From a virus, in IMG/VR virus record IMGVR_UViG_3300027971_000031, positions 43,127 to 107,126 of that record: a DNA stretch of 64,000 nt. One strand, given 5' to 3'. The first letter of the stretch is position 1. Each line of letters starts with the position of its first letter. This document shows positions 17,876-52,455 of this stretch, piece by piece. The notes beneath the pieces were generated by a model. It saw only the letters and a list, made by a program, of their open reading frames with translations, did no database searches and was not told the origin of the DNA. The translations under genes and the position numbers were made by a program.

Positions 17876-17876
17876 A

Positions 17877-29996: not shown

Positions 29997-31153
29997 TATA
30001 AATTAATTACTATTCCTTCAGGTTTTGTACCTGGCTTATAAAATTTTAATCTACCGTTATATGATTCAGATAATGAATTTAGATTGGTAGATACTTCGGA
30101 GATTTCAATAACATTTACACTATATCCATCACTTAGTAATTCAATACACAATTTGAATTGTTGAGATTCTTCAACAATATTAGAACCTTTCTTATATGTT
30201 ATATGGTTCATAACAAATGGGATTTCTTTATTTGGATTTTTTTGTGTGTAATATTTTTTAATAAATAAAATATGAGATTTATTAAATTGATTAACACTTG
30301 AAATTAAATCAGTACCCGCACCAACACTATCGGCAAAATGTTTTAATGATTTATTGTCCCCATTAATTGTTGGACCACCAAAACCAAACCCATAGTTCAT
30401 GTGTTTTTTACCAATTCCTGAATCACCTCCAATTGCGTTTAATACCATATTAACCTCATCTTCAATACCTGATTTAGTGATAATTTCACCTAACATATTG
30501 GCGTAACTAATTTTTGCAGATAAAAAAGAATTAATTCCAATCTTTGTCAATTCCGCAGCTTTTGATGACATGGAATAAACATTAACAAGAACTTTTTTAA
30601 TTTTGGTGTGTAACTGAATTAAATCATTTGTTAATTCTTGGTATTCACTACCAATCAAAACCATTTCATGATTTTCAATATCTTTAACAATTTCACCTTC
30701 ATTTGTAAAGAATGGGTTGTAAGCAACCTGAACATTAAACATGTTTAATCTTTGTTGTATTTGTTCCACTTCGCCAGGATTTGTGGTAGAACATATAACC
30801 ACTTTCTTATTATGAATAGGAACATTTTGTGATGATAAACTATAAAATTCTGAAATTATATCAAACACTTTTGTTGTGTCGTAGTTACCCTCAATATTAG
30901 ATGGGGTTTGTGAAAAAATAAAAATGATATCAGAATTTTTAATCACATCTAAATTACTTGTCGTTGCACTAAATTTTTTAGTGTTAAATAACATAGATTG
31001 AATTAATGGTTCATTTGTAATACAAATCTTTTGATTAAGATTAAAAATATAATCTTCATCCATATTTGAAACTAAAACGTCATATCCATTTTTTTCACAT
31101 AATAAACCAAACGACAACCCAACGTCATTAATACCAATAACACCTAATTTCAT
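29996..31153 (-). CDS. UDP-glucose/GDP-mannose dehydrogenase-family protein (degenerate active site)
   Basis: NEP, VICSTTNPG, YNP.F..EG, AELTKIGINSFLSAKISYAN, GFGFGGPT (catalytic Cys absent). Confidence 0.75.
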   Translation of the reverse strand: MKLGVIGINDVGLSFGLLCEKNGYDVLVSNMDEDYIFNLNQKICITNEPLIQSMLFNTKKFSATTSNLDVIKNSDIIFIFSQTPSNIEGNYDTTKVFDIISEFYSLSSQNVPIHNKKVVICSTTNPGEVEQIQQRLNMFNVQVAYNPFFTNEGEIVKDIENHEMVLIGSEYQELTNDLIQLHTKIKKVLVNVYSMSSKAAELTKIGINSFLSAKISYANMLGEIITKSGIEDEVNMVLNAIGGDSGIGKKHMNYGFGFGGPTINGDNKSLKHFADSVGAGTDLISSVNQFNKSHILFIKKYYTQKNPNKEIPFVMNHITYKKGSNIVEESQQFKLCIELLSDGYSVNVIEISEVSTNLNSLSESYNGRLKFYKPGTKPEGIVINL

Positions 31154-32787
31154 TATGAAAGAATTTTAAGATATTCGTCTTTAATTTGTTGAGCAACACC
31201 CATAGTATAATATTTCTCAATATCTGTTGGTGGTTCGTATTTTTTTTTGGAAAGGATAAATCCACCTTTATCGACTTTATAAATCCAACTTGATTTACCA
31301 CACATCCAACTTTCAATTGTTGTTCTACCTAATTGGATTCCTGCTGTTTCATAAGCCTTTAAGATGAAATCCTCAACCTTCCAAGTTGATGGGAAATGTT
31401 TGACGTGGTCTTCCAACAAAACATTTTCCAAATAATTTCCATTATTTTCTCCAACTAACCAAAGTTCTTTTCCAATCTCTCTGGTATATTCAATTAAATC
31501 TAAGATTGATTCTTTTCTCAAATAATCTATGGTACCAACAAATAACACATAATTTTCTGTCGATGCGTTTTTAGATTTAAATTTCTCATTATCTATAGGA
31601 TTATAAATAATGTTAATCATCTCTTCAGGTATTTCAAAGTTATCAACCATGTGTTCTTTAATCTCAGGACGAATGGCAATGTATTTTTTAATTGTTGGGT
31701 CAACAACTGGGTCTTCTAACGAAATGACCTCAGAGTGAATACTACAAATCTTATCCAATTCAGGATACATATTTAAAATTCGTTCTGCAACAGGTTTGTG
31801 TTGGAAGTGGATTATATCATAATCTACTTCTGCAACACGGTATAATGCATTTGGTGTTGATGGTTTAAATCCTTCAGGAGTATTTGTTCCCCACTGTCCG
31901 TCACCAAGTTTGAAACCTGGCGCATTTTCAAATGAAACACATTTAATCCCAAGTTTTTTTGCCATGTCAGTTACAGGACCACCAATTTGTGAAAGAACCG
32001 TAACACTACAATTTAACTTGATTAAACTTTTTGCCAATTCAAAAACATATAATTCTGAACCTGTAAAATTTCTAAATGAAATACAAGATAATAATACTTT
32101 TAATCTTCTATTTGGGTCAAACGGAATTTTGTTTGGTAAATTATCTTTATATTTTTGAACGAAAAAATTTCTATTATCTTCCCATTGGTCATTGGTTTGA
32201 CCAATAGACTTATGAGTTATTCTGATGTTGGTGATTACACCAACTTTAACACCTTCTAAATGATTTCTAAAACAAAACGCAATATCATAAAAGTGAAACC
32301 CTTCAAACTCTTCATCAAATGTGTGTTTAATTCTTGATTTACTTAACGCGATAAATAAACCATCAACAATAACTGTTTGTCTAATTGACTTACCTAAATC
32401 ATCTGAATATTTTGAAGTCCATTTCTTTCCTTCACTTTCGTGGTTAACAATACCAATCATATCTTTTCTACGATTAGTCTCCCACCATCTACCAGTGTCA
32501 GACATGTTGGTTGTACCTGCAACTCCTAAAATACCAAAATCACTTTTTTCAAAATGAGTTTTAATTTTGTGAAACCAACTTGGGGTATCAAAATAAATGT
32601 CATCATGACAAAGAACAACGATATCTGTCGTTGATTCCTCAAGAATTTCATTATAAACTTGAGACAGTGATTTCTCTCCGTTATTAATCTTTTCAATAAC
32701 TTCTATTTTTTTAAACCCCGAACTTTTCTTTAAGTACTCAATAAATTGAGGGTTATGTTCTCTTGTTGAATATCCTACTGTAATCAT
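31153..32787 (-). CDS. Two-domain glycosyltransferase (GT-A Glyco_tranf_2_5-like + GT-B/GT4-like)
   Basis: N-half SLSQVYNE..VVLCHDD, GVAG, DGLFIA, FHFYD; C-half TGSELYVFELAKSL, IYNPID, LFVGTI, GRTTIESWMCG. Confidence 0.8.
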   Translation of the reverse strand: MITVGYSTREHNPQFIEYLKKSSGFKKIEVIEKINNGEKSLSQVYNEILEESTTDIVVLCHDDIYFDTPSWFHKIKTHFEKSDFGILGVAGTTNMSDTGRWWETNRRKDMIGIVNHESEGKKWTSKYSDDLGKSIRQTVIVDGLFIALSKSRIKHTFDEEFEGFHFYDIAFCFRNHLEGVKVGVITNIRITHKSIGQTNDQWEDNRNFFVQKYKDNLPNKIPFDPNRRLKVLLSCISFRNFTGSELYVFELAKSLIKLNCSVTVLSQIGGPVTDMAKKLGIKCVSFENAPGFKLGDGQWGTNTPEGFKPSTPNALYRVAEVDYDIIHFQHKPVAERILNMYPELDKICSIHSEVISLEDPVVDPTIKKYIAIRPEIKEHMVDNFEIPEEMINIIYNPIDNEKFKSKNASTENYVLFVGTIDYLRKESILDLIEYTREIGKELWLVGENNGNYLENVLLEDHVKHFPSTWKVEDFILKAYETAGIQLGRTTIESWMCGKSSWIYKVDKGGFILSKKKYEPPTDIEKYYTMGVAQQIKDEYLKILS

Positions 32788-34120: not shown

Positions 34121-35335
34121 TTATTTAATTAAAGATTTGTAATATTCAGCTCTATTTTTTGTAACGTTATTTAAATCATATGTGTCTTTAACAGTTTCAT
34201 ATAATCTTTCACCCATATCGTTTACTAAGTTAGGGTTATCAACCAATTTCTTAATGTATTTTGCCCAATCAGAGTGATTTCTATTTTCATTTACTAACAT
34301 AGCATTTCCATCAACAAAATTACCGTGTTCTAAACAATGTTTTAAATCGATGGTATATGGACCTAAATCAGAAGTAATTAACGCCTTCTTATAAAATCCC
34401 GCTTCAATTACTTTCAATTGTGATTTCATTCGGTTAAACATTGTATTTTTGATTGGTGCCAAAGATACATCAAATTTTGAATAATTTTTTGCGTAAGATG
34501 TAACGGGTTGTGTCCAAACTCTCACGTACGATTCATTGTATTGGTTCGGATAAACTTCTTGAGTATATTTTAACAAATATTTTTTATATTCTTCGGAAAC
34601 TAATGAATGGTTTTGTGTAAATATTTTTTCATATTGAGCCCAAACAGTTTCATGAGGTAAAATGTCTCTTTTTTTATGTTCACCTGTTTGTTGATTGATT
34701 TCAGTCACACTTCCTCTTGTGTCAAATCCACACAAAACAAATTGTAATTTATCTTTAAGATTTGTTATTTTACCAAAAGGTTGGTCTAATAACTGAATAT
34801 CATGTAAGTGTGATGAACCACCTAACCATCCGACTCTTAATCGGTCTGATTCTAATGTTGGTTCTTTAAATTGGGGTTCATTTGGATTAATTGCGTTTGG
34901 AAAAACAACAACATTTTTATTAAACTTTCTAATTTCATTTGCAAAGATTTCTGTTGTTGTTGTAACATATGAGGCAACTTTAAGATTTGCAACAATCTTT
35001 TCATTAATCTTATTAAATTTAATGATATCGTGAATAGGGTGTTCTTTGCCTGGCATCCAATAATCGTCAATGTCCGCAATTGTGATTATACCTAATGAAT
35101 TTAATTTTTGAATTAATTCATGTGCTCTTTCAAAATCAGGACCAATACTTCTGTGAAAAGTAACTATTTGATACTGTTTCCAAAAGTTCATATCATCATA
35201 TGATGGTTCATAATCAATATCCACATGGAAATCATCACCATATAAATTTTGTAAGAATACGTGAGGGTCAACCGACCTAAATTTACCAACTCCTGTTCTA
35301 TCGGATGGTACGACTAAGACTTTAATTTTCGACAT
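34121..35335 (-). CDS. GT-B fold glycosyltransferase
   Basis: GVGKFRSVDPH, DIDDYW, VFPNAI, RVGWLGGSSHLHD, DVSLAPIK..FNRMKSQLKVIEAG. Confidence 0.85.
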   Translation of the reverse strand: MSKIKVLVVPSDRTGVGKFRSVDPHVFLQNLYGDDFHVDIDYEPSYDDMNFWKQYQIVTFHRSIGPDFERAHELIQKLNSLGIITIADIDDYWMPGKEHPIHDIIKFNKINEKIVANLKVASYVTTTTEIFANEIRKFNKNVVVFPNAINPNEPQFKEPTLESDRLRVGWLGGSSHLHDIQLLDQPFGKITNLKDKLQFVLCGFDTRGSVTEINQQTGEHKKRDILPHETVWAQYEKIFTQNHSLVSEEYKKYLLKYTQEVYPNQYNESYVRVWTQPVTSYAKNYSKFDVSLAPIKNTMFNRMKSQLKVIEAGFYKKALITSDLGPYTIDLKHCLEHGNFVDGNAMLVNENRNHSDWAKYIKKLVDNPNLVNDMGERLYETVKDTYDLNNVTKNRAEYYKSLIK

Positions 35336-38100: not shown

Positions 38101-40971
38101 ATGGCATATCAAAACATTAATCAGTATAATTTTCGTAAATGGGGGATAAAACCAGTCAATGAAATTACCGACATTTGCTTAGCGTCGGACGAGAGAGATT
38201 ATGACCAAGAAGTCGTTTTTTCACCTTTATTAATAGGTGAATTTGATGGAAACAGAATGCCATTTAAGTTTGACTTCAATAGTTCAGGAACAACTTTATG
38301 TCAAGTATCCCCTTGTGTTTTTAGTGCAGATACTATTGTTTCAGAGAATTATTGGAACCCTGACGACATTGACCCCAACTTTTGTCCAATCGTTACAGAA
38401 TTATGTGATATTGGTCTAACGGGAATCGACAACGGACTTGTTCAAAACATGTCAGGTGAAACAATCGAAATTACAACAGGATTATATACAAACATTTCAG
38501 ACAAGTTTAGTAGATACAAATATGACAGGAGAATGAAACTTCATCCTATCACAGGTTTTACCACGACCGAAAATAGATTATGGAATGATAACTCATACAC
38601 TTATGATTTAAATTATCAAAACGTTGGTGGAGATATTGGGTATGTTGCAAACTTACAAGGTGGATTCTTCCAAGGGTTTTACAAAATACCAGGATATGAT
38701 TACCAAGTTTTTCCACAAAGAGTCCCATTAGGTTGGACAGCTGAGTTCATGTTAAAGTATAGATGGACTGGTGATACATCAGGAGGTCTTAACAACAGAT
38801 ATCCCGACAATAAAGGAACATTCTTTTACATGGGGGCAAGAGCCGAGAATAAATTTTACCATTATGCTGACGGTAGTCCAAAACAAGATACGGGATATAC
38901 AAGAGTTACATCAGGTTTAACTTGTATGCACACTTGTGGTTGTGCAAGTAGTGCCAATACATCATCACAATGTCTTCAAGTGTATCAACCATCAGGTGGT
39001 ACCATTACAAATTGTACTTGTGGATGTGCTTGTGATTGTACGACAACCGCTCAATACCCTGAAAAAGACCCACTATATGATGAGGTTTCAAATGCATTGT
39101 CTTTAAGATTAAGTGGCGACACGGGTAGTCCAAGATTGTGTGTTAAGACATATAGAATAACAGGTGGATGTGAACATAGTGGAACTTGTTTAACGGGACT
39201 CACTTATGTAACGGGGACTTCATTAACTGAATGGTGTTCGACAAGAGGTATTTTTGATGATTGTTCGGGAACCACTTATCAAAATGTAGAACATTGGGTT
39301 CAGATTGATGCCGTATTCCAAAGATATGAATGGTTGGATAAATGTGACCTATATGATAAAGGTGGACTTGGTCTGCTTGTTAAAGATGTATATTATGCAA
39401 CAATTGAAGGTAGAAGTGTAACCTTAATTGAACCTCCAATAACCCATGAAGCAAAATATGACCCAGCATCAACTGAAGTTGTGACATTCACTGACATGTG
39501 GACTGAAGAACAAAAGTATAGATTGGGAACACTTAAGTTTTATGTGAATGGAAAATTATTTATGGTCACTGAAAACTTTGAAGAAATTATTCCAAGATTG
39601 TTGAATACTCCAAAAGAAAAACAAATTGGTGTTGGATATAACATTTCAATTGGTGGTGGTACTCAAGGACTTCACGATAACTTAACATTCTCTGGTGGTT
39701 GTCCTGAAACAATTGGTGAAATTGTTTATCAACAAGACCCTGAGTGTTTAACTAATTATGATTTGGAACATACAATTTATTCAGGATTAACAACCCAAAT
39801 TAAATTGGAAGAATATTTTGGTGGTAGTATGATTGGAGAAATCAGTGCATTTAGAATGTATACTGAACCATTAAATGCTTCACAAATTAAACACAACTTT
39901 AGAATATTAAAATTCAAATATAATTTATTAGACCCTGATTGTTTAAATTGTAGAATAACAATACCAGGAAATGATTTAACATATATTTTAATTCCTAATA
40001 ATGATTTATATTATTTGAGTATACCTGCGAATGATTTGTATTACGAACTAATTCAACCAACACCTACACCGACAAATACTCCAACTAATACGACAACGCC
40101 AACTAATACACAAACACCAACGCCAACAATTGGTACTATTACAATATCTCTTGTAGGTACATATTCACCAGGCTCAATCAACGCCAACTATATTGCAAAT
40201 GCAAACACAACATTAGGTGTTGATATTGATATCACATTTGTTAACACTTTAGGTGTGACCAGTGGTTTACCAATTGTTATCAGTGGCTCGGTTACAATAC
40301 AATCGGGACAAACATTTGGAAGTAGTTATTATACTATCGTAGATGATTATAACTTATTAGACGATAATAGTGTTTTCACCTCGGTAAATGTATCAGTTAC
40401 AGGCTCAACATCAAGTACGTTTGTTGTTAATACAATATCAGAGTTTGATGTTACACCAACACCAACTCCTTCAATAACACCTACCAACACTGTAACCCCA
40501 ACTAATACACCCACTAATACCGAAACACCCACTATAACACCAACTGTAACCCCAACTAATACACCTACTAATACTAATACACCAACTGTAACACCAACTG
40601 TAACTTCAACAAACACACCTACTAATACTAATACACCAACGGTAACTCAAACTCCAACAAATACTGAAACGCCAACACCAACCAATACTGAGACACCAAC
40701 AAACACTCCAACTGAAACTCCTACTAATACACCAACTAATACACTAACACCAACTGAAACCCAAATCATTACTCCAACTCCAACAAATACTAATACACCA
40801 ACCATTACCTCAACCCCAACACCGACAACAACAAGTACACCAACTGTGACACCAACTAATACTAAAACTCCAACGCCGACTCCAACTTCAACTGAACCAT
40901 TCTTTATTTTAATTCAAAATGGTGACATATTAACGGCTCAAGATGGTAGTGGAATAGAATATCAACATTAA
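38101..40971 (+). CDS. Large virion protein: Cys-rich LamG/ConA-like region plus Thr/Pro mucin-like tracts
   Basis: [39 protein letters not shown] (LamG-like); IPxNDLxY x3; long TPTNT repeats; C-terminal [13 protein letters not shown]. Confidence 0.7.
40450..40895 (+). repeat. Thr/Pro-rich low-complexity tract (TPTNT/TPTVT), ~150 aa
   Basis: Direct translation; degenerate ACN-CCN-ACN codon repeats. Confidence 0.9.
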
Positions 40972-40988
40972 AACTAATATTTATAGAA

Positions 40989-41495
40989 ATGGCAAACGTA
41001 CAAATAGCAAATTTACCGACATACACAGGAAACACAAATGGTGCTTTTCTTGTTATGAACAATAGTGGGAACACAGAATCATTTAAAGTAACCAAAGAAA
41101 CATTATTTAGCGGGTATTCGCAAAATGCAATATCACCAGTCACAGGAAGTTGGACGTTATCTGCAGGTACAAATACTGTTAGTTTTACAGTTCCTCAGGG
41201 TGAATCATATGTTATGTGGGTGAATGGAAATATTCCAAACGGTATTGTTAATTGGAATGCAACAGTAACACTATCAAACAATAATGTACCTGTAATAGGT
41301 GTACAGTATGGGTGGTATTATCTCGCGGGAAATGCTTTGGAGTTAACATCAATACCAAGTCAGATAGTCGGAACTGCGGGAACTATTAGTACATCAGCAC
41401 CTGCGGGTTCAAATACAAATACCTTTACATTTGGTATAACCAATAATAGTGGCTCGTCTAAAATAATATATTACGGATATATTAAAATAAGTTAA
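40989..41495 (+). CDS. Putative fiber/decoration protein
   Basis: TATTTAT 4 nt upstream; N-terminal VQIANLP motif reminiscent of fiber attachment modules; beta-rich. Confidence 0.6.
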   Translation: MANVQIANLPTYTGNTNGAFLVMNNSGNTESFKVTKETLFSGYSQNAISPVTGSWTLSAGTNTVSFTVPQGESYVMWVNGNIPNGIVNWNATVTLSNNNVPVIGVQYGWYYLAGNALELTSIPSQIVGTAGTISTSAPAGSNTNTFTFGITNNSGSSKIIYYGYIKIS

Positions 41496-41496
41496 A

Positions 41497-42057
41497 ATGG
41501 ATTGTTTTTACTACAGAATAACAAATTATAATAATGTTGAAACTGGATTTTACCGATGGACAGGGTGTACTGACATAATTGGTGTTACTCCTGTTGAACC
41601 ATTACAAACTAGTTATTTTTGCGCTAAAGATATATCTGTTGAAGATTATGCTGCACCACTTGATGTTGTGGATATGGGATTATGTCCGTCAACAACACCC
41701 ACACCAACTGTAACTCCTACACCAACTCAAACATCTGTAACTCCTACACCAACTCAAACATCTGTAACCCCAACTCAAACTCCAACACCAACAGTAACAC
41801 CTGTAATTGTTTATAAATACAATTTAAGAACTGGTGGTTATTATCAAAATGTTTGTGGCTCAACATATTTTGGAAATGCAGCTAACGTTACAATTTATAC
41901 CGAAAAAATATTTGGTGATTTACAAATTGGAGACAATGTTTATGGTGATATTTTATTAACAATCCCACCAATAGGTGCGAATTTCACAATTTCAGATGGC
42001 TCAACATTTATACAAATTGGAGGAACGTTGATTATTAATAAAGGAATATGTGGTTAA
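41497..42057 (+). CDS. Mucin-like modular virion protein (Cys module - T/P linker - Cys module)
   Basis: T/P linker includes a 27 bp tandem repeat at 41708-41768. Confidence 0.7.
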   Translation: MDCFYYRITNYNNVETGFYRWTGCTDIIGVTPVEPLQTSYFCAKDISVEDYAAPLDVVDMGLCPSTTPTPTVTPTPTQTSVTPTPTQTSVTPTQTPTPTVTPVIVYKYNLRTGGYYQNVCGSTYFGNAANVTIYTEKIFGDLQIGDNVYGDILLTIPPIGANFTISDGSTFIQIGGTLIINKGICG

Positions 42058-42102
42058 AATTTTTTTAATTAGTATAAAACAAAAAAATAAGTATTTATTG
42101 AT

Positions 42103-43509
42103 ATGTCATTAGGAGTAAGAATTTTAAGTAATAATTTGAGTGGTCAAACCACAAATGTTGTGTATTTTCCAGATACAGGAGGTACGATTGATTTGGGTAC
42201 GCAAGTATTCCCATTCAATTATCTTTCAAGTTATTATTATGGTAATTATGATTGTTATGTCCCAACATATGGTTATACATACTCATTGAATATTCCAGGT
42301 CCAACACCAAGTCCAACTCCAACAAATACTGAAACTCCAACAAACACACCAGGTTTAAGTCCATCAGCAACAGAAACTGCGACTCAAACACCTACAAATA
42401 CTGCAACTCCAACTGTAACACCTACAAATACCGCAACACCAACTCCTTCAGTTACGGTAGGATTGACTCCAACCGCAACTTCAAGTAATACTCCTACTCC
42501 AACTGAGACTCCAACAAATACTCCAACTAATACTACAACACCAAGTCAAACTCCAAGTAATACTGCAACTTCAACGGTTACGCCTACGGTAACTACAACA
42601 AATACCACAACTCCAACTAATACACCAACTAACACTGTAACACCAAGTAACTCACTTTGTAAGACTTATTTATTGTTTGGTGGTACAATAAATCAGACAA
42701 CATTTGCCGGTATTGATTGTGATGGTTTTGTATATGATTTCTTCCTTGAAGTTTTAGATACTTTAGTTTATTGTGCTCAAACTGTTATTATTGTCGATGG
42801 TGACGGTAGCGCGACTTATTTAGGTGGATGTCCATTACCAACACCGACAGCAACTCCAACAAATACTGCAACTCAAACACCAACTCCTTCAATTACATCA
42901 AGTAATACACCAACACCAACTGTAACTCCAACAAATACTGAGACTCAAACTCAAACGCCAACTAACACTCCAACTAACACGGAGACTCCAACAGAGACAC
43001 CAACTAACACACCTACTAATACCGAAACTTCAACTCAAACTCCAACACCAACTAACACAGAAACTCCAACACAAACTCAAACAAATACACCAAGTGAAAC
43101 TCCAACCAATACTCCTACCAACACAAAAACTCCAACACAAACTCAAACACAATCTCAAACACCGACATTAACTACAACTGAAACACCAACACAGACACCT
43201 ACTAACACAGAAACACCAACGCCAACTACTACTAATACTCCAACACCAACTACTACTCCAACTGTTGGATATTATGTTTATTCTTTTGGTTATAATGTAT
43301 CTTCAATTGTATCCGCTTGTTCGGCAACACCTTCAAACTATTATCTTTCGCCATCATTAAATCCTCTTGACTTGGGTGATTATATCTATACAGATACGTC
43401 TCTTACCACTCCGGCCCCTAATGGTTATTATTCTGACGGCACTGGATGGTATTTAGTGAGTGGAGGTTCAGGTCAAATTACAGGTAATGACCCTAATGGA
43501 TGTCCATAA
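42103..43509 (+). CDS. Mucin-like modular virion protein with two long T/P tracts
   Basis: TATTTAT 4 nt upstream; more than half of the protein is T/P/S/N repeat; C-terminal ...NGYYSDG...DPNGCP module. Confidence 0.75.
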   Translation: MSLGVRILSNNLSGQTTNVVYFPDTGGTIDLGTQVFPFNYLSSYYYGNYDCYVPTYGYTYSLNIPGPTPSPTPTNTETPTNTPGLSPSATETATQTPTNTATPTVTPTNTATPTPSVTVGLTPTATSSNTPTPTETPTNTPTNTTTPSQTPSNTATSTVTPTVTTTNTTTPTNTPTNTVTPSNSLCKTYLLFGGTINQTTFAGIDCDGFVYDFFLEVLDTLVYCAQTVIIVDGDGSATYLGGCPLPTPTATPTNTATQTPTPSITSSNTPTPTVTPTNTETQTQTPTNTPTNTETPTETPTNTPTNTETSTQTPTPTNTETPTQTQTNTPSETPTNTPTNTKTPTQTQTQSQTPTLTTTETPTQTPTNTETPTPTTTNTPTPTTTPTVGYYVYSFGYNVSSIVSACSATPSNYYLSPSLNPLDLGDYIYTDTSLTTPAPNGYYSDGTGWYLVSGGSGQITGNDPNGCP

Positions 43510-43574
43510 ATTAAAAAAAAAATATTTATAACAATATAAAATAACGTAGTATTTATAATAAAATAGAAAATAAG

Positions 43575-44621
43575 ATGGCATGTAGTAAATATACCCTAAC
43601 AAATACTGGTTCAACCATAGTAAATTTCAACTATAGAAGATGTGATGACTCTATGTGGGAGTATCAAGTTGAATTAGAACAAAATCAAACTAAAAACATT
43701 TGGTTAATTAATGGTACATATTCAATTGCACCATCATTTAGTAGTAGTGTTGTTTTAGTTAATAATGGTGCCTACCCAACGGTTCTTCCCACACATACAC
43801 CAACAGGAACTCCAACGTCAACACCTACACAAACGCCAACTCAAACACAAACAGGTACTGCTGCGGTAACACCAACTCCAACTCAAACACAAACAGGTAC
43901 TGCTGCGGTAACACCAACTCCAAGTGTAACACCAACAGAAACCGCGGATGTAACACCAACTCCAACACCAACAGTAACTAATACACCAACAGTAACTAAT
44001 ACACCAACAGTAACTAATACACCAACACATGCTAGATTTACATTTGTAATTACTTCAGGTCTAACATCTAACGTAGCTTGTGATACGGGAGTATCGGGTA
44101 CTATCTACGGTGATGAATCAATCTTTAATGATAACACTCAATTCTATAATTCATTAACAGGACCTGTAAATATTGATATGACAGGATACTATGCAAATTC
44201 AGGAGTTGTTGTTTTATTAACTACTAATGGATTTGAAACGGGTGGTTATACACTTTGTTCGGTTCTTCCAACATTAACCCCAACTCCAACTGTAACTCAA
44301 ACTCCAACTAATACACCAACTGTAACTCAAACTCCAACTAACACATCAACATCAACTCCGACACCAACACCAACAATTGGATATTATACTTATAGTTTAG
44401 GTTATGATGCATCTTCAAATGTAACGGCTTGTTCTGCAATACTTTCAAATTATTATCTTTCTCCTTCTCAAAACCCACTTAGTATCGGTGATACTATTTG
44501 GACTAACACAGCTCTTTCAACACCAGCGTCAAATGGATACTATTCTGATGGTATTGGTTGGTATCAAGTTACTGGCGGAGCAGGATTAATTAGTAACACT
44601 GACCCTAACGGATGTATTTAA
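43575..44621 (+). CDS. Mucin-like modular virion protein
   Basis: Two upstream TATTTAT (43523, 43550); T/P linkers with 42 bp x2 (43836-43919) and 18 bp x3 repeats; C-terminal module paralogous to that of 42103-43509. Confidence 0.75.
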
Positions 44622-44647
44622 AAAAAAACAATACAAATATATTTTAG

Positions 44648-44677
44648 AAAACCCTTCACCTTCGTGGAGGGTTTTTT
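44648..44677 (+). terminator. Rho-independent terminator
   Basis: AAAACCCTTCAC-CTTC-GTGGAGGGTTTTTT. Confidence 0.85.
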
Positions 44678-44703
44678 ATTTTTATATATAAAATATATTA
44701 TAC

Positions 44704-45969
44704 ATGAAAATTTTCGTTCAAATCGCATCTTACAGAGACCCTCAGTTGGTTCCAACAATTAAAGACATGTTGGCAAATGCCAAAAAACCAAATAACCTTG
44801 TTATCGGTATTGCAAGACAATATAGCGATGAAGATGGTTTTGATAATTTAGATGAATATAAAGATGACAAAAGATTTAGAATCTTAAATATTCCTTACCG
44901 AGATGCCAAAGGTGTATGTTGGGCAAGACACCAAGTTCAACAACTTTACAAAGGTGAAACATACACACTACAAATTGATTCTCACATGAGATTTGTTAAG
45001 GATTGGGATGATATCCTTATCAAAATGATAAAGGGGTTACAGAAGGACGGGTATAAGAAGCCTCTACTTACGGGCTACGTTCCTTCTTTTGACCCCGAAA
45101 ATGAACCCGCAGGAAGAGCAACCGATGCTTGGAGAATGGCGTTTGACCGTTTTATTCCTGAAGGTGCTGTGTTCTTCTTACCTGAAACAATTCCAGGTTG
45201 GAAAGAAATGAAGAAACCTGTGACCTCAAGATTTTACTCAGCTCACTTCTGTTTTACATTAGGACAATTCTCAACTGAAGTTCAACACAACCCTGAATAT
45301 TATTTTCACGGAGAAGAAATTTCAATTGCTGCAAGAGCGTACACTTGGGGTTATGATTTATTCCACCCACATATTCCTGTTGTTTTCCACGAGTATACTC
45401 GTAAAGGTAGAACAAAACAATGGGATGATGACACAACTTGGGGACAAAAGAATAGTCACTCTCACTTAACAAATAGAAAATTATTTGGTATGGATGGTGA
45501 AACTCAAGAAGGTCATGACGGTCCTTATGGTTTTGGTCCTGTTAGGACTTTAACCGATTATGAAAAATATGCCGGTATTCTTTTTTCAAAAAGAGCAATT
45601 GACAAACATACTTTAGATAAAAATTATCCACCAAATCCATATAATTTTGAAACAGAACAAGAGTGGAAAGATAGTTTCTGTATGATGTTCAAACATTGTA
45701 TTGATATTGGATATTCTCAAGTTCCTGAAACTGATTATGATTTTTGGGTTGTTGCATTCCATAATGATAAAGAGGATACTTTATTTAGAAAAGACGCAGA
45801 CAAAAATGAAATTGCTGGTTTTATGAGAGACCCTGACAAATATTGTAAAGTATGGAGAGAGTTCCAAACGGATGAAATGCCGTCTCATTGGGTTGTTTGG
45901 CCTCACTCAGAATCTAAAGGATGGTGTGATAGAATTACAGGTAGATTAACCCACAATCACATTAGTTAA
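44704..45969 (+). CDS. GT60-like polypeptide alpha-GlcNAc transferase (Skp1 Gnt1 / Pfam GlcNAc family) with extra C-terminal domain
   Basis: IFVQIASYRDP, AKGVCWAR, YTLQIDSHMRF..DWD (DSH motif), LLTGY, SAHFCF, YFHGEE...AARAYTWGYDLFHP, HEY. Confidence 0.85.
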   Translation: MKIFVQIASYRDPQLVPTIKDMLANAKKPNNLVIGIARQYSDEDGFDNLDEYKDDKRFRILNIPYRDAKGVCWARHQVQQLYKGETYTLQIDSHMRFVKDWDDILIKMIKGLQKDGYKKPLLTGYVPSFDPENEPAGRATDAWRMAFDRFIPEGAVFFLPETIPGWKEMKKPVTSRFYSAHFCFTLGQFSTEVQHNPEYYFHGEEISIAARAYTWGYDLFHPHIPVVFHEYTRKGRTKQWDDDTTWGQKNSHSHLTNRKLFGMDGETQEGHDGPYGFGPVRTLTDYEKYAGILFSKRAIDKHTLDKNYPPNPYNFETEQEWKDSFCMMFKHCIDIGYSQVPETDYDFWVVAFHNDKEDTLFRKDADKNEIAGFMRDPDKYCKVWREFQTDEMPSHWVVWPHSESKGWCDRITGRLTHNHIS

Positions 45970-46703
45970 TGAATATTACAAATATACCTAAGTTTGTCGT
46001 TAATTTAGAAAGACGACCTGACCGATTGGAACATATCCAAAAAGAAATGGATTATATGGGTTGGGATTATGAGTTATTTAAGGCGGTTGATTTAAATAAT
46101 CATGGTGGTTGTACTTTGTCTCATACAGAGATTATTAAAATAGCAAAAGAACGTGGGTATGATTCAGTAATGGTGATTGAAGACGATTGTACTTTTTTAC
46201 CTTATTCAAAAGATTTAATTAATAAAATTGATACAGAATCTGGTGATTTTGAATTTGGTATAATTAATCTTGCACCAACATTAAACAGAAAAGTTAATCG
46301 TAGTGAGGAAAATCCTCTCTTTTTAGACATTACAAATTTACCACCAAAACTAGAACATGAAAGAGGTGTCTTTGCAACAAATATGATAATCTATCATAGT
46401 TCAATTTATGACGATGTTTTAGAATTAGAAAAACCTGAAAAATTAGGGTACTACGCAATTGACGATTATATTTATCAATTTATTTTACCTATCAAACAAA
46501 GTTATTCTCCAATACTACCAATTGCACCTCAAATGAGTAGTTGGTCTGATGTATCACAAGGACAATACAATAATTTTTACACACAAACATATAATTGGAA
46601 TTTATATAGTCCATGTAAAATACCTTCAGGATATTTACATGGGACTTTAGTTCAAGAATTAAAAGACAATAAACAACACAACGAATTTACATATGTCAGT
46701 TAA
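45969..46703 (+). CDS. Glycosyltransferase family 25
   Basis: FVVNLERRPDRL, FKAVD, GCTLSH, VMVIEDD, AIDD. Confidence 0.85.
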   Translation: MNITNIPKFVVNLERRPDRLEHIQKEMDYMGWDYELFKAVDLNNHGGCTLSHTEIIKIAKERGYDSVMVIEDDCTFLPYSKDLINKIDTESGDFEFGIINLAPTLNRKVNRSEENPLFLDITNLPPKLEHERGVFATNMIIYHSSIYDDVLELEKPEKLGYYAIDDYIYQFILPIKQSYSPILPIAPQMSSWSDVSQGQYNNFYTQTYNWNLYSPCKIPSGYLHGTLVQELKDNKQHNEFTYVS

Positions 46704-47574
46704 ATTTATTACATCAATATATAGTGATTTATATGGTACCGAATATGGTGGACGAATTGGTAGAGGAGGACATTATAGATACAGTCTGTTATCACTTTTA
46801 AAAATGACTGATGCCGATTTTTTATGTTATACCTCAGATAGAGAATTACCATCACTAATTACTTTTTTTTATGAAACTCATGGTATATCACCAGATAAAT
46901 TAAAATTTGAAGTCTTTGATATTGCAAATACAAAATTCAAAGATTTAATTAATCAATACAAAGATGTTGAGGCAACTAAAAAGTCTGACCGTTGTATTGA
47001 AGTTCAATATAGTAAATTTCATTGGTGGTGGAATGAAGATAAATCTTATGATTATTATTATTGGATTGATGCAGGATTATCACATTGTGGTTTAATTCCT
47101 GTAAAATATTTGGTTGGTACTCATCCTGAACAAAGATATTATGAATCAACCTTGTTTAACAACGATTTCTTAAAAAATTTAGTTGAGGATACTGGTGATA
47201 AATTTTTAATGATTGGAAAAGAAAATGACCGAAATTATTGGGCGGGAACTTTAAATCCTAAGTGGTATACAAATTGGGAAAGAGGTATTCATATTATTGG
47301 TGGATTGTTTGGTGGTCATAAAGATAAGTGGGACGAAATTGTAACACTATTTGAAAATTATACAGAAAATGTTATTACTGAAGATAAAGGTATACCTCAT
47401 GAAGAAAATGTGATGACGTTGATGTATTATAACCATAAAGAATTAATTGAAAGAAAACATTTTGACATTTGGTGGTGTAGGGATAACGCACCTGCAGGTG
47501 TTACCGATGAAATGTTTGAGGAAAATAAAAGTTTTTTTAGAATTTTAGAAGAATTTAATAGAATATATGAGTAA
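46693..47574 (+). CDS. HtrL/YibB (WlaTC)-like glycosyltransferase
   Basis: FITSIY, QYSKF, YYYWIDAGLSH, IGGLFGG, HEENVMT. Confidence 0.65.
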   Translation: MSVKFITSIYSDLYGTEYGGRIGRGGHYRYSLLSLLKMTDADFLCYTSDRELPSLITFFYETHGISPDKLKFEVFDIANTKFKDLINQYKDVEATKKSDRCIEVQYSKFHWWWNEDKSYDYYYWIDAGLSHCGLIPVKYLVGTHPEQRYYESTLFNNDFLKNLVEDTGDKFLMIGKENDRNYWAGTLNPKWYTNWERGIHIIGGLFGGHKDKWDEIVTLFENYTENVITEDKGIPHEENVMTLMYYNHKELIERKHFDIWWCRDNAPAGVTDEMFEENKSFFRILEEFNRIYE

Positions 47575-49243
47575 TATAACTTTAGTAACAGGAATATGGG
47601 ATATTGGTAGAGGTGAACTATCTGAAGGATGGTCAAGACCTTACCAACATTATTTAGATAAGTTTGAGCAACTTTTAAAGTGCGATGAAAACATGATTAT
47701 TTTTGGAGATGAAGAACTTCAAAAATTTGTCTTTGAACGAAGAAGTCGGGATAACACTCAATTTATTCTTAGACCAATGTCTTGGTTTAGAGAGTCTGAA
47801 TTTTTTGATAAAGTTCAGAAAATTAGGACAAATGAACAATGGAAAAACTTATCGGGATGGTTAAAAGAATCAACTCAAGGTAGATTAGAGAATTATAATC
47901 CGTTAGTAATGTCCAAAGTGTTTTTATTACACGATGCTAAAATTATGGACAGATTCAATTCTGAATATATGTTTTGGATTGATGGTGGATTAACAAATAC
48001 CGTTCACCAAGGTTATTTTACTCACGATAAAGTTCTTAATAATCTATCAAAATATATTTCAAAATTTTCATTTATTTGTTTCCCATACGATGCGGAAAAT
48101 GAAATTCATGGGTTTGAATATAATGCGTTAAATTCTATTGCTGGTTCAAAAGTTAATAAAGTTGCACGAGGTGGATTCTTTGGTGGTCCAAAACACACTA
48201 TTAGTGATATTAATGGAATCTATTATGGATTACTTAAATCAACATTAGATGAGGGATATATGGGTACCGAAGAATCAATCTTCAGTATTATGTGTTATAA
48301 ACATTCTGACATGATTAATTATTTTGAAATTGAATCTAATGGTTTAGTTGGTAAGTTTTTTGAAGATTTAAAGAACGGTGAATTAAAACCTAAATCTGAA
48401 AACATTAATAAAGAAACGAACACATTAGATGTTAATAAAGTTGGTTTATATGTTATCACATTTAACAGTCCAAAACAATTCTCAACTTTAATTGAATCTA
48501 TGAATGCGTACGATAAAGATTATTTATTAAAAACTAAAAAGTTTTTGTTAGATAACTCAAGTGATGAATCAACATTTGATGATTATGCTAAATTGTGTGA
48601 AGAGAATGGTTTTGAACACATTAAAAAAGATAATTTAGGTATTTGTGGTGGTCGTCAGTGGATTGCAGAACATTTCCAAAATGAAACAGATTTAGATTTC
48701 TATTTGTTTTTTGAAGATGACATGTTCTTTTATCCAAAAGAAGGTGATGTGTGTAGAAATGGATTTAATAGATATGTTTCAAATTTATATTCAAAAACAT
48801 TACAAATTGTTAAGAAAGAAAACTTTGATTTTTTAAAACTTAATTATAGTGAATTCTTTGGTGACAATGGTACTCAATGGGCTTGGTACAACGTGCCTCA
48901 AGATGTGAGACAAAAGTATTGGCCAGGTAAAGATAGATTACCTGTTCAAGGTTTAGACCCAAATGCCCCAAGAGCGGTTTATAATTCAGTTAATTCATTT
49001 CAAGGAGTTCCTTATGTTACGGGTGATGTATATTATTGTAATTGGCCTCAAATCGTTACAAGAACAGGAAATCAAAAAATGTTCTTAGATACAACATGGG
49101 GACATCCATTCGAACAAACATGGATGAGTCATATGTATCAGTTAGTCAAGAAAGGTGAGTTATATCCTGGTTTATTACTCATGACACCAACAGAACACGA
49201 TAGATTTGAACATTACGAAAGAAGTTTAAGAAAAGAGTCATAA
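47567..49243 (+). CDS. HtrL-like + GT-A two-domain glycosyltransferase
   Basis: ITLVTGIWDIGR, YNPLVMSKVFLL, FWIDGG, RGGFFGG, GTEESIF; second domain LYVITFN, LLDNS, NLGICGGR, FFEDDM. Confidence 0.75.
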   Translation: MSNITLVTGIWDIGRGELSEGWSRPYQHYLDKFEQLLKCDENMIIFGDEELQKFVFERRSRDNTQFILRPMSWFRESEFFDKVQKIRTNEQWKNLSGWLKESTQGRLENYNPLVMSKVFLLHDAKIMDRFNSEYMFWIDGGLTNTVHQGYFTHDKVLNNLSKYISKFSFICFPYDAENEIHGFEYNALNSIAGSKVNKVARGGFFGGPKHTISDINGIYYGLLKSTLDEGYMGTEESIFSIMCYKHSDMINYFEIESNGLVGKFFEDLKNGELKPKSENINKETNTLDVNKVGLYVITFNSPKQFSTLIESMNAYDKDYLLKTKKFLLDNSSDESTFDDYAKLCEENGFEHIKKDNLGICGGRQWIAEHFQNETDLDFYLFFEDDMFFYPKEGDVCRNGFNRYVSNLYSKTLQIVKKENFDFLKLNYSEFFGDNGTQWAWYNVPQDVRQKYWPGKDRLPVQGLDPNAPRAVYNSVNSFQGVPYVTGDVYYCNWPQIVTRTGNQKMFLDTTWGHPFEQTWMSHMYQLVKKGELYPGLLLMTPTEHDRFEHYERSLRKES

Positions 49244-49725: not shown

Positions 49726-52455
49726 ATGATATCTAACGAAGAAATTGAATCTTTCTTACACGGCAACGACCCTGAAGAATTTATTGTAGCAATCGAATTT
49801 GACTACGCATCCAACTCCATTTATAAAATTAAAGAAATTCCTGGTAAAGGAAAAGAAATCCGTAAGGATACATTTACCCCATTCGCTTGGGTAGGTGATT
49901 TACGTAATATCAACTTTTATGGTGGTTCCAAATCCGCTCAAAAAGATGCCATGACCAAACATGGTATTACGATTGATAAATTAGAAACCCATGGTGATGA
50001 ACGATTAGAAAATGGTATGACCTTTATGGTTAAATCTCTTAAAGGATATCGTGAACTCATCCAATTTTTTAGAGAAGGTGGATGTGACCCATGGGGTGAA
50101 AAAACAAAGGATAAACTTATTGTCCTTCCGCCCGTAGAACAATATCTTATATCAAAAGAAAAACGACTATTTAAGGGATTTGAGAATTACAATGAGGTGA
50201 CCCGACTCGTATATGACTTAGAGACGACCTCTCTTGAACCACAAGACGGTCGTATATTCATGATTGGAATTAAAACAAATAAAGGATACCACAGAGTTAT
50301 TGAATGTATTGATGAATCTGAAGAACGAAATGCAATCATCGAATTCTTCAACGTAATCAATGAATTAAAACCAAGTATCATCGGTGGTTATAATTCTGCA
50401 AACTTTGACTGGCATTGGATTTTTGAACGTTGTAGAATTTTGGGACTTGACCCAAAAAAGATTTGTAAGTCATTACACCCCCAACATTCGTTCACAAGAA
50501 AAGACGGGATGTTGAAACTTGCTAACGAGGTGGAGACATTTACTCAAACCTCAATTTGGGGTTATAATGTTATCGACATTATTCACGCAGTTCGTAGAGC
50601 TCAGGCAATTAACTCAAGTATCAAGGCGGCAGGTTTGAAATATATTACAAAATATATCAACGCAGAATCACCAAGTCGTGTGTATATTGAACACGACAAT
50701 ATCGGTAAGTTATTCCTTAACAAAGAAGAGTATTGGTTAAACACACAGAATGGTAATTACAAGAAAGCAAACAATCCTGCGTACGATAACTTAGACACAA
50801 AGTTTCCTAACGTCTACAAAAAGATTACAGGTGATAAAATTGTTGAGATGTATCTTGACGATGACTTAGATGAAACCTTAAAAGTTGACCAAGAGTTCAA
50901 CCAAGGTTCATTCTTGTTGGCTGCGATGATTCCAACAACATACGAGAGAGTATCTACAATGGGTACCGCAACTTTATGGAAAATGTTGATGTTGGCATGG
51001 TCTTACAAACACGGACTTGCAATCCCCGCCAAACAGGGTAAGACAGACTTCGTAGGAGGTCTCTCACGACTACTTAAGGTTGGTTATAGTAAGAATGTAC
51101 TTAAACTCGATTTCTCGTCACTATATCCATCTATTCAGTTGGTACACGATGTATTCCCTAAGTGTGATGTAACAGGTGCGATGAAAGGAATGTTAAAATA
51201 CTTCCGTGACACTCGTATTATGTACAAACAATTGGCAGAAGAGTTTGAAAAAACAGACCCTAAGAAGTCAGAGTCATATGGTAATAAACAATTACCAATT
51301 AAGATTTTCATTAACTCGATGTTCGGCGCGTTGTCGGCACCACAAGTATTTGCTTGGGGTGACATGTACATGGGAGAACAGATTACTTGTACGGGTAGAC
51401 AATACCTTCGTCAAATGATTAAGTTCTTTATGACAAAAGGATATGTTCCGTTGGTAATGGATACGGACGGTGTGAACTTCTCGACTCCTGACGATGCAAA
51501 AGACCGAGTTTATGTTGGTCGTGGATTGAATTGGAAATCTAAGTTGGGTAAAGAATATTATGGACCTGAGGCTGATGTTGCCGAGTATAACGATATCTTC
51601 ATGAGGGGTGAGATGGCACTTGACACGGATGGGGTTTGGCCTTCGTGTATTAACTTGGCTCGTAAGAACTATGCGGTTATGGATGCCAAGGGTAAAATTA
51701 AATTGACAGGTAACAGTATCAAGTCAAAGAAACTTCCAATCTACATTGAGGAGTTTTTAGATAAAGGTGTTAAAATGTTATTGGAAGGTAATGGTCAGGC
51801 GTTTGTTGAATATTATTATGAATACTTACAAAAGATTTTTGACAAACAAATCCCTTTAAGTAAGATTGCACAACGAGCTAAAGTTAAATTATCTGTAGAT
51901 GATTATAAGAAAAGATTAACAACTAAAACAAAGTCAGGAAATAGTATGAGTCGTATGGCTCACATGGAACTTGCAATACAAGAAAATCTTGCGGTAAATC
52001 TTGGGGATGTTATTATGTATGTGAATAATGGATTAAAGTCATCTCATGGTGACGTTCAGAAAAAAGGTGATGGTGTTCAAATCAATTGTTATATGTTACA
52101 CAAAGATATTTTGGAAAATGACCCTAATCTAACAGGTGAATATAATGTGCCGAGAGCAATTACAACATTTAACAAAAGAATGGAACCATTAATGGTTGTA
52201 TTTCAAGATGAGGTTAGAAATAACTTAATTGTTAATGACCCTGAAAATAGAGGTATTTTCACAAAGGCTCAATGTGAATTGATTAATGGACATCCACTAG
52301 GTAATGGTGACCAAGATAGATTGCAAGAAGATGTACTTGATATAACCGAACAAGAGTTAAATTACTGGGAAAGACGAGGGTTAAGTCCTGACTACATGTA
52401 CGATTTTGCGGAAGAAGATTGGAAAGAAAAATTAGGAATTCTTGAGACCGTCTGA
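49726..52455 (+). CDS. polB: DNA polymerase family B
   Basis: Exo motifs DLETT and GYNSANFDW; polymerase motifs DFSSLYPSI, KIFINSMFG, MDTDG, KNYA. No intein seen. Confidence 0.95.
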   Translation: MISNEEIESFLHGNDPEEFIVAIEFDYASNSIYKIKEIPGKGKEIRKDTFTPFAWVGDLRNINFYGGSKSAQKDAMTKHGITIDKLETHGDERLENGMTFMVKSLKGYRELIQFFREGGCDPWGEKTKDKLIVLPPVEQYLISKEKRLFKGFENYNEVTRLVYDLETTSLEPQDGRIFMIGIKTNKGYHRVIECIDESEERNAIIEFFNVINELKPSIIGGYNSANFDWHWIFERCRILGLDPKKICKSLHPQHSFTRKDGMLKLANEVETFTQTSIWGYNVIDIIHAVRRAQAINSSIKAAGLKYITKYINAESPSRVYIEHDNIGKLFLNKEEYWLNTQNGNYKKANNPAYDNLDTKFPNVYKKITGDKIVEMYLDDDLDETLKVDQEFNQGSFLLAAMIPTTYERVSTMGTATLWKMLMLAWSYKHGLAIPAKQGKTDFVGGLSRLLKVGYSKNVLKLDFSSLYPSIQLVHDVFPKCDVTGAMKGMLKYFRDTRIMYKQLAEEFEKTDPKKSESYGNKQLPIKIFINSMFGALSAPQVFAWGDMYMGEQITCTGRQYLRQMIKFFMTKGYVPLVMDTDGVNFSTPDDAKDRVYVGRGLNWKSKLGKEYYGPEADVAEYNDIFMRGEMALDTDGVWPSCINLARKNYAVMDAKGKIKLTGNSIKSKKLPIYIEEFLDKGVKMLLEGNGQAFVEYYYEYLQKIFDKQIPLSKIAQRAKVKLSVDDYKKRLTTKTKSGNSMSRMAHMELAIQENLAVNLGDVIMYVNNGLKSSHGDVQKKGDGVQINCYMLHKDILENDPNLTGEYNVPRAITTFNKRMEPLMVVFQDEVRNNLIVNDPENRGIFTKAQCELINGHPLGNGDQDRLQEDVLDITEQELNYWERRGLSPDYMYDFAEEDWKEKLGILETV

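Follow-up and report, generated by a model that had tools for sequence, protein, structure and literature searches.

Motif-rich virion proteins in the window

The stretch of DNA analyzed here (the window) comprises the final 64 kb of a linear 107-kb viral contig (IMG/VR record IMGVR_UViG_3300027971_000031, positions 43,127 to 107,126) from an uncultured, freshwater-type jumbo phage, and all coordinates are those of the window unless otherwise noted. The gene at 38101–40971 on the plus strand, coding for a 956-amino acid (aa) protein that we refer to as P0001, is the first of a co-oriented cluster of fibre-like genes that continues through 40989–44621 and is followed by GT60-like, GT25 and HtrL-like genes (GT, glycosyltransferase). 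P0001 contains 13 copies of the tetrapeptide motif [Ser/Thr]-Gly-x-Thr, which is also found in several other proteins of the window. More generally, in this phage and its relatives the sequence [Ser/Thr]-[Gly/Ala]-x-Thr occurs in outer tail and fibre proteins at three to eleven times the frequency expected by chance, and the motif represents either a new signal for sugar attachment or a building block of beta-structure specific to this phage lineage.

P0001 has two domains with motif sites. The N-terminal ~650 aa correspond to a conserved lectin-like jelly-roll domain with 11 sites (38284–39792, plus strand) at aa 62, 118, 151, 223, 264, 271, 298, 338, 365, 389 and 561, the first codons of which begin at nucleotides 38284, 38452, 38551, 38767, 38890, 38911, 38992, 39112, 39193, 39265 and 39781. 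Proline- and threonine-rich (Pro/Thr) linkers occupy aa 650–681 and 783–935, and the ~100-aa beta domain between them holds the remaining two sites, SGQT at aa 735 and TGST at aa 767 (40303–40410, plus strand). The spacings between successive N-terminal sites are irregular (56, 33, 72, 41, 7, 27, 40, 27, 24 and 172 residues). The N-terminal 650 aa are 78–96% identical across more than 1400 metagenomic proteins and the C-termini differ (LamG_3, DUF285 and others), a combination that makes up the architecture of a receptor-binding fibre. An AlphaFold2 model of P0001 built from 81 sequences contains a beta-rich domain (predicted local distance difference test score, pLDDT, 80.5; predicted template modelling score 0.81), the fold of which weakly matches those of lectin-like jelly rolls and of a cyanopodophage tailspike (Foldseek E ~1.5e-3, probability ~0.99). 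Sites of this kind had been expected in surface loops, and at the level of secondary structure all 11 lie in coil or within three residues of a strand end, in ordered regions, and none is in a helix; their contexts are not uniform, as three come before a strand, four come after one, and the remaining four are in coil.

The second motif-rich protein is a 507-aa product of the late baseplate/hub operon, encoded at 10548–12071 on the minus strand downstream of a gp5-like gene (hereafter the 10548 protein), with eight sites at aa 67, 71, 115, 190, 224, 241, 341 and 353. It belongs to no assigned family, has more than 3000 metagenomic homologues, and its AlphaFold2 model, made from a shallow alignment, has a pLDDT of 37.6. 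The third is the 1075-aa tail sheath (59545–62772, plus strand), in which all six sites (aa 141, 278, 347, 360, 670 and 684) fall within an insertion region N-terminal to the conserved sheath domains that Pfam recognizes at aa 796–1065. The four small proteins of the fibre cluster (40989–41495, 41497–42057, 42103–43509 and 43575–44621, all plus strand) have seven sites where about 1.95 are expected, and three of them have Pro/Thr linkers. The corresponding cluster in relatives encodes proteins with Peptidase_S74 chaperone and YadA-head domains, which indicates that the cluster proteins are fibres or spikes.

P0001, the 10548 protein and the sheath have no mutual homology detectable by BLASTP, including in the direct comparison of P0001 with the 10548 protein; BLASTP thus gives no sign of hidden paralogy among the enriched proteins of the window, and the motif is spread over unrelated proteins, as an earlier note on this DNA had described. 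Searches of solved structures, Pfam and PHROG with the 10548 protein, the small fibre proteins and a pair of glycosyltransferases discussed below returned nothing decisive, and a protein atlas search matched only clusters of viral hypothetical proteins. A Cys-rich insertion with CxC runs (…CMHTCGC…, …CTCGCACDC…) is present at aa 271–390 of P0001 (38911–39270), with pLDDT of 58–69 in parts, and the form [ST]GCT recurs in this insertion, in the 10548 protein, in the 41497 product and in remote homologues.

Enrichment of the motif

The counts that the earlier note had made by hand are all exact on recount: [S/T]-G-x-T is present 13 times in P0001 with the tetrapeptides listed, eight times in the 10548 protein and six times in the sheath, twice each in the major capsid protein (MCP), the gp5-like gene and the genes at 40989, 42103 and 43575, once each in the portal and the gene at 58223, and not at all in the 909-aa polymerase or the 584-aa helicase. 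Because the Thr content of several of these proteins is inflated by their Pro/Thr tails, the linkers were masked and each protein was shuffled 2000 times. The excess survives this control for composition, with 13 sites against 1.17 expected in P0001 (Poisson probability 4e-10), 8 against 0.69 in the 10548 protein (7e-7), 6 against 1.30 in the sheath (2e-3), and 53 against 18.1 over the whole 107-kb contig; an artefact of composition, including Thr inflation from the tails, is thereby ruled out. The proposal that virion proteins are enriched holds for these three and for the small fibre-cluster proteins, but not for the MCP, portal and gp5-like protein, which lie at the ~1.6-fold background. 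The remaining proteins of the contig, when pooled, reach ~1.75-fold, similar to the background in control phages (1.5–1.7-fold).

Three further controls bear on the nature of the signal. First, since the motif had been picked by eye, all 8000 patterns of the form a-b-x-c were scored, which rules out a post-hoc choice of motif: SGxT ranks first on the contig (31 observed, 8.8 expected, p 4e-9), TGxT fifth and SAxT, the recurring variant already pointed out in the earlier note, 15th, and within each of the three enriched proteins taken separately either SGxT or TGxT ranks first. Second, the order of residues matters. On the contig [ST]G.T has a z-score of 7.9, with the reverse T.G[ST] at 1.2-fold, [ST].GT at 1.0-fold, [ST]G.S at 1.4-fold and G.T preceded by residues other than Ser or Thr at 0.95-fold; over the reversed and all permuted orders the range is 1.0–1.8-fold, and locally S/G/T-rich composition is ruled out. 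Third, the sense frame has 53 matches while the two other sense frames have two each, which places the signal at the level of protein and not of DNA. Codons at the motif sites mostly follow genome usage, except that Ser prefers TCA over TCT, and with the frame analysis this rules out a DNA word or codon effect.

Residue requirements

Substitution profiles were derived from the P0001 family and from an independent set of 155 fibre-cluster proteins without similarity to P0001, and the two sets agree on a refined motif, [ST]-[GA]-{P}-T. Position 1 is Ser or Thr only, with Asp (0.8–0.9-fold) and Asn (0.9-fold) at background in both sets. Position 2 is Gly or Ala almost equally and no other residue, the forms with Ala being enriched 6.8-fold in the P0001 family and 3.4-fold in the fibres. 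Position 3 is any residue except Pro, which is found at none of 1101 sites in one set and none of 887 in the other. Position 4 is Thr; Ser is at 1.3–2-fold, Val and Ile are below 1, and Cys is enriched in one set only (4.4-fold, in the P0001 family). These rules fit poorly with the usual small structural motifs, since Asp and Asn would be tolerated in Asx/ST-turns and Val and Ile at strand starts, and Ala would be excluded from Gly-turns; a generic Asx/ST-turn or Gly-dependent turn is ruled out by the profile. In addition, the motif is preceded by a hydrophobic residue in 47% of cases (background 31%).

Conservation and turnover of sites

The enrichment extends throughout the families of the motif-rich proteins. 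Among 150 representatives of the P0001 family with no more than 50% mutual identity there are 1101 sites against 127 expected, and the excess is 8.7–11-fold overall, with the remoter members at 11-fold. When 21 diverged P0001 homologues (35–83% identity) are aligned, about 20 hot columns are apparent, over which P0001 homologues spread the 7–19 sites that they retain; sites 118, 151 and 264 are retained in 20, 18 and 15 of the 21 with x varying, other columns are occupied in subsets of the homologues, and singletons occur at the background rate. In the 10548 family, S115, G116 and T118 are invariant in 38 sequences, and six different residues (T, D, N, S, M and E) are found at x. Across 75 relatives of the sheath, sites 360, 670 and 684 are present in all 75, 347 in 62 and 141 in 56, and others turn over.

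At greater distances individual sites are lost. Only one of the eight sites in the 10548 protein is shared with homologues at 37–39% identity, and two of nine are shared between sheath orthologues at ~40% identity. In both families sites shift by 3–4 residues between orthologues at ~40% identity with the density still several-fold above expectation, and the survival of a single site at that distance is about that of three unconstrained residues.

The motif in relatives and in control phages

In a distant relative with an MCP 62% identical to that of the window phage, the three highest ranks of 8000 are taken by SGxT (123 observed, 34 expected, p 2e-32), SAxT (86, 22) and TGxT (111, 37), and there is almost no motif in its capsid, portal, terminase, polymerase, helicase and glycosyltransferases. 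Six loci with a P0001 homologue of 48% identity retain the order of P0001-like protein, fibre-like proteins and GT60; the intervening proteins are mostly unrelated to those of the window and are nonetheless enriched, for example with 8 sites against 1.0 expected in 164 aa and 9 against 0.78 in 686 aa. The fibre-cluster proteins of a deeper clade that has neither GT60 nor Pro/Thr tracts are still enriched 4–12-fold. By contrast, six control sets, from immuto, Mel-JY01, Syn19, P-HM1, T4 (its early region and its long tail fibres) and LR756508, are at 0.7–1.7-fold (0.7–2.0-fold across their structural and non-structural regions), and the motif is never among their top 100 patterns. The T4 long tail fibres have 8 sites against 4.7 expected, which is background, and the immuto and Mel-JY01 fibres are likewise at background.

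Motif spacing is irregular in the three enriched proteins of the window and regular, with a 7/9 alternation, in the fibres of the distant relative. In one fibre protein from a distant relative (L224:4371-7307, minus strand; equivalent to G001:C1:44368-47307) there are 40 [ST]G.T sites in 979 aa, along with perfect-looking 16-residue repeats (…LTANTLTITGNTLLAG…), and the 1636-aa sheath of the same genome has tandem inserted modules, each with TGTT…SGFT. In a further distant relative (G002; L231-L238) the top a-b-x-c patterns are CPxC (9 against 0.3), HAxG and SHxE, ahead of TGxT, and these probably mark a paralogous gene family. The fibre cluster of one relative includes a collagen-like (G-x-y)n protein with Ser/Thr at y (L086:10361-12058, plus strand; GTSGTSGSSGVNGTPGSNG…).

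Glycosyltransferase genes and genomic context

The contig is well supplied with glycan genes, including at least 13 glycosyltransferase genes, DegT aminotransferases, an epimerase, a UDP-sugar dehydrogenase, methyl- and acetyl-transferases, and sugar-nucleotide pathways. On the minus strand, overlapping genes for GT-B (GT1-type; 17877–18929) and GT2 (17069–17908) enzymes, both recognized by Pfam, head the late operon, and are followed by a sigma-like gene (16320–17069), the gene at 13832–15934, the gp5-like gene and the gene for the 10548 protein. The pair is retained with 40–48% identity and with synteny in two distant relatives that are also enriched, and is therefore present in all three lineage members examined; the block 16320–18929 (minus strand) is kept in two distant relatives at 40–53% identity, gene order included. 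A homologue of the GT-B gene is absent from cultured phages, the non-enriched controls included, and the GT2 gene has only three marginal matches among cultured phages (22% identity, E 5e-5 to 4e-4), which fall outside the controls. We regard the pair at 17069–18929 as the best candidate for a reader of the motif.

A gene for a GT60-like polypeptide N-acetylglucosamine (GlcNAc) transferase (PF11397; 44704–45969, plus strand; Pfam E 6e-66) lies directly after the fibre cluster and adjoins P0001 homologues in the six diverged loci. In searches run with a positive control, the deeper clade lacks it both at the syntenic position and elsewhere in four records of 44–58% completeness, and the Pro/Thr tracts are absent likewise. 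Since enrichment persists in this clade, the motif is not the acceptor for GT60, which is ruled out as its reader; the distribution links GT60 to the Pro/Thr linkers rather than to the motif. Mucin-like Pro/Thr linkers (TPTNTPT…) are present in four co-oriented proteins of the fibre cluster, ahead of the GT60-like, GT25 and HtrL-like genes (38101–49243), and relatives have either both the linkers and GT60 or neither.

The glycosyltransferase gene near the fibre cluster that is best conserved is a PHROG 7162 member at 34121–35335 (minus strand), situated among dUTPase-like, exonuclease and WYL genes. It is 53–71% identical in all relatives and fused to larger proteins in some of them, and its product could act on DNA rather than on protein. 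A further conserved glycosyltransferase gene lies at 31153–32787.

The contig has a G+C content of 30% and is estimated to be 36% complete, which implies a jumbo phage with a genome of roughly 300 kb. Its capsid protein is of the gp23 type, and the closest matches on the cultured side are just 42–45% identical (Flavobacterium phage immuto, Microcystis phage Mel-JY01 and an uncultured 484-kb phage); its sheath has large insertions. The family-B DNA polymerase (49726–52455) is unlike T4 gp43, and its best matches are to Salinibacter phages at ~23% identity; although the capsid and sheath are T4-like, matches of the polymerase to T4-like gp43 are marginal, and none among cultured phages is close.

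Possible roles of the motif

We propose that [ST]-[GA]-{P}-T is a short tag on outward-facing virion proteins – the fibre-cluster proteins, the insertion domains of the sheath and the 10548 protein – that is selected for its own sake and read by a lineage-specific factor acting in trans, most plausibly a phage O-glycosyltransferase. This is the explanation we tentatively favour, although we put it at somewhat less than an even chance. The enzyme would act in the cytoplasm late in infection and would modify either the final Thr (position 4) or the initial Ser/Thr (position 1); the GT-B/GT2 pair conserved at the head of the late operon would be the best candidate, and the neighbouring GT60 would serve the Pro/Thr linkers instead. 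The motif may have originated in a common repeat of tail fibres (…LSGGTxTG…) and later been copied onto other exposed proteins. Rather more doubtful is the specific proposal that it is a previously undescribed O-glycosylation sequon through which, in a widespread lineage of uncultured jumbo phages, the conserved cytoplasmic pair coats fibres, sheath decorations and a baseplate-region protein with the phage's own glycans, separately from a GT60/Pro-Thr mucin-type system. That the tag is read in trans by some factor, of whatever chemistry, seems to us about evenly balanced, with glycosylation accounting for most of this likelihood and another reader for a small part.

Several observations argue for a tag that is read. 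First, the excess is specific to one lineage and its residue rules misfit the known structural motifs, and rules of folding should show in all phages. Second, sites turn over while their density is kept. Third, the restriction of position 1 to Ser and Thr and of position 2 to Gly and Ala speaks against a generic Asx/ST-turn and a Gly-only turn. Also in favour are the survival of the excess under all the controls, its presence in three proteins of the window without detectable mutual homology, the free third position that is never Pro, the varied contexts of the sites in the P0001 model, and the large complement of glycosyltransferase genes, with a pair inside the late operon of every lineage member examined. 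A weak further argument is depletion in non-virion proteins, with no sites against 3.9 expected in 36 such proteins of the window and 3 against 7.5 in the six diverged loci, the orthologues being non-independent; non-structural proteins of the controls are at 1.63-fold. Of the sequon that the earlier note had put forward, the statistical premise is borne out more strongly than the note had claimed, the motif being real, ordered, conserved in the lineage and present at the protein level; the further step to a sequon is circumstantial. Its suggestion that a phage glycosyltransferase reads the motif now points to the GT1/GT2 pair of the late operon and not to GT60, for which the co-occurrence comparison that it called for finds no requirement.

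A number of points weigh against a glycosyltransferase-read tag. The co-occurrence of motif and enzyme is confounded by phylogeny, because one clade is compared with outgroups, and the Pro/Thr linkers already offer the glycosyltransferase repertoire an obvious acceptor. The depletion in non-virion proteins is not genome-wide, as the first 43 kb of the contig have 8 sites against ~5 expected. A literature search for the motif, or for an O-glycosyltransferase with a matching sequon, found none, and we know of no O-glycosyltransferase with such a sequon. Many of the sites are conserved in position and lie in well-ordered regions (pLDDT 80–96), as structural residues would. Fibres of the distant relative alternate TANT and TGNT in 16-residue repeats, at spacings of 7, 9, 7 and 9, and the motif is also found within hairpin-like V[ST]GGT[YF] modules and in the peptide YLPLSGGTVTGNT (YLPLSGGTVTG). 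A 27-residue query with this peptide matches tail/fibre proteins of Klebsiella and Maribacter phages at ~93% identity over 14 residues, with weaker full-length matches to Aeromonas (~58%) and Rhizobium (50–54%) fibre proteins; the query is short and E-values are weak. None of the Klebsiella, Maribacter, Aeromonas and Rhizobium phages with the peptide has a homologue of the GT-B gene, and GT2 has at most marginal matches elsewhere. Finally, the fibre proteins of the distant relative have shuffled modules in common, so that part of the spread of the motif is by descent, and this sharing among its motif-rich proteins extends to its sheath.

The fibres of relatives directly support a purely structural role, in which the motif is a beta-strand cap or the corner of beta-solenoid, beta-hairpin and beta-sandwich modules in fibres and decoration domains. 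The small residue would suit a tight corner, the hydroxyls would hydrogen-bond to the backbone, nothing would modify the motif, and it would have spread through descent, module shuffling and convergent reuse. The repeats and hairpin-like modules, the near-identity of YLPLSGGTVTGN in tail/fibre proteins of unrelated cultured phages and the sharing of modules all suit this role, as do the invariance of several sites across families, the placement of sites at strand ends in ordered regions and the frequent hydrophobic residue before them; the VxGxxxxx octad of the T4 gp5 triple beta-helix provides a precedent. However, protein physics is universal, and yet control phages and the T4 long tail fibres are at only 1.5–1.7-fold. 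Neither the irregular spacing and lack of detectable mutual homology in the three enriched proteins of the window nor the heterogeneous contexts in the P0001 model would be expected of a shared structural element, and Asp/Asn do not replace Ser/Thr, Val/Ile do not replace Thr, and Ala replaces Gly almost freely. Moreover, single sites disappear at a roughly neutral rate, and density is nevertheless regained. We consider a purely structural role nearly as likely as a glycosyltransferase-read tag. It is also not exclusive of a sequon, and comparison with other systems suggests that the two could coexist.

It is unlikely that the reader is something other than a glycosyltransferase, such as a fibre-assembly chaperone, another modifying enzyme (a kinase, or an acyl- or methyl-transferase) or a component of the host surface with affinity for arrays of exposed Thr. 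Such a reader would share the arguments for a lineage-specific factor, none of which identifies the chemistry, and the glycan gene island does encode methyl- and acetyl-transferases, just as the fibres of relatives carry Peptidase_S74 chaperone domains; but no candidate gene tracks the motif, and the methyl- and acetyl-transferases look sugar-modifying (CmcI, PglD and GNAT types beside DegT aminotransferases). That chance, amino acid composition, low-complexity Pro/Thr tracts or a DNA-level word accounts for the excess is extremely improbable even though the proteins are Thr- and Gly-rich and the motif was selected after viewing the sequence, given probabilities down to 4e-10, the first rank of SGxT, permuted orders near 1-fold, the frame specificity, and replication in hundreds of homologues and a distant genome.

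Should a phage glycosyltransferase read the motif, no short O-glycosylation sequon would have been described earlier for virions of tailed phages, and glycosites could be predicted in metagenomic phage proteins by the thousand; public data already include more than 1400 that are P0001-like and more than 3000 that are 10548-like. A sequon would also offer a simple way to study orphan phage glycosyltransferases by co-expression, and would be relevant to the masking or tuning of receptor-binding surfaces by large aquatic phages. A structural motif would instead be a compact, lineage-specific beta-element with unusually sharp residue rules, which could be used to recognize the outer virion proteins of this clade.

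Comparison with known systems

Virion proteins of mycobacteriophages are O-glycosylated by phage-encoded glycosyltransferases (Freeman et al. 2023, PMC10527164, as cited in PMC12619734), the acceptors being, in the account given in PMC12619734, the C-termini of capsid and tail-tube subunits. The phage described here resembles these, as they are portrayed there, in having glycosyltransferase genes beside structural genes, and in that system glycans are added to exposed virion proteins in the cytoplasm. It differs in that a four-residue pattern, recognized from sequence alone, is distributed over fibre and sheath-decoration domains with the capsid at background. To our knowledge, no short sequon has been described for virion glycosylation in mycobacteriophages.

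Short sequons are well established in other settings. The N-x-[ST] sequon, including that of the cytoplasmic HMW1C/NGT-type N-glycosyltransferases, never has Pro in the middle, strongly prefers Thr to Ser and has some Cys at the last position, and in viral envelopes N-x-[ST] sites drift while their density stays. The motif is similar in its free, non-Pro middle residue and its preference for Thr over Ser, with some Cys, at the end; unlike N-x-[ST] it lacks Asn and starts with Ser/Thr and a small residue, so that any linkage would be O-linked, and no enzyme related to the HMW1C/NGT type was identified in this analysis. The general O-glycosylation sequon of Bacteroidota, D-[ST]-[AILVMT], is a precedent for a strict three-residue prokaryotic O-glycosylation motif, but its residues differ, and it is used in a periplasmic, lipid-linked system whereas phage virions assemble in the cytoplasm. 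The mucin-type GT60 (PF11397) systems act on Thr/Pro-rich tracts, and there is a true member after the fibre cluster with Pro/Thr tracts in the same proteins; the enrichment of the motif is, in contrast, independent of both.

Other parallels are structural. Tail-fibre beta-repeats such as the gp5 octad and …LPLSGGTxTG… similarly fix a small residue in short periodic repeats, and the SGGT subclass of the motif is the fibre peptide itself; however, the three proteins of the window are aperiodic, with the sites lying mostly on a modelled globular, lectin-like jelly roll in P0001 and in an insertion region in the sheath. In the AIDA-I/TibA autotransporters, beta-helix repeats are heptosylated by AAH/TibC, and in Bacillus BclA collagen-like GxT repeats are O-glycosylated. 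BclA repeats have Pro at x, which the motif described here excludes, and no homology to the AIDA-I, TibA or BclA substrates or enzymes was found. As may be the case here, though, exposed Ser/Thr residues of repeated structural motifs in these proteins double as acceptors for cytoplasmic or dedicated O-glycosyltransferases, and this double use means that a structural and a glycosylation role for the motif can both be true.

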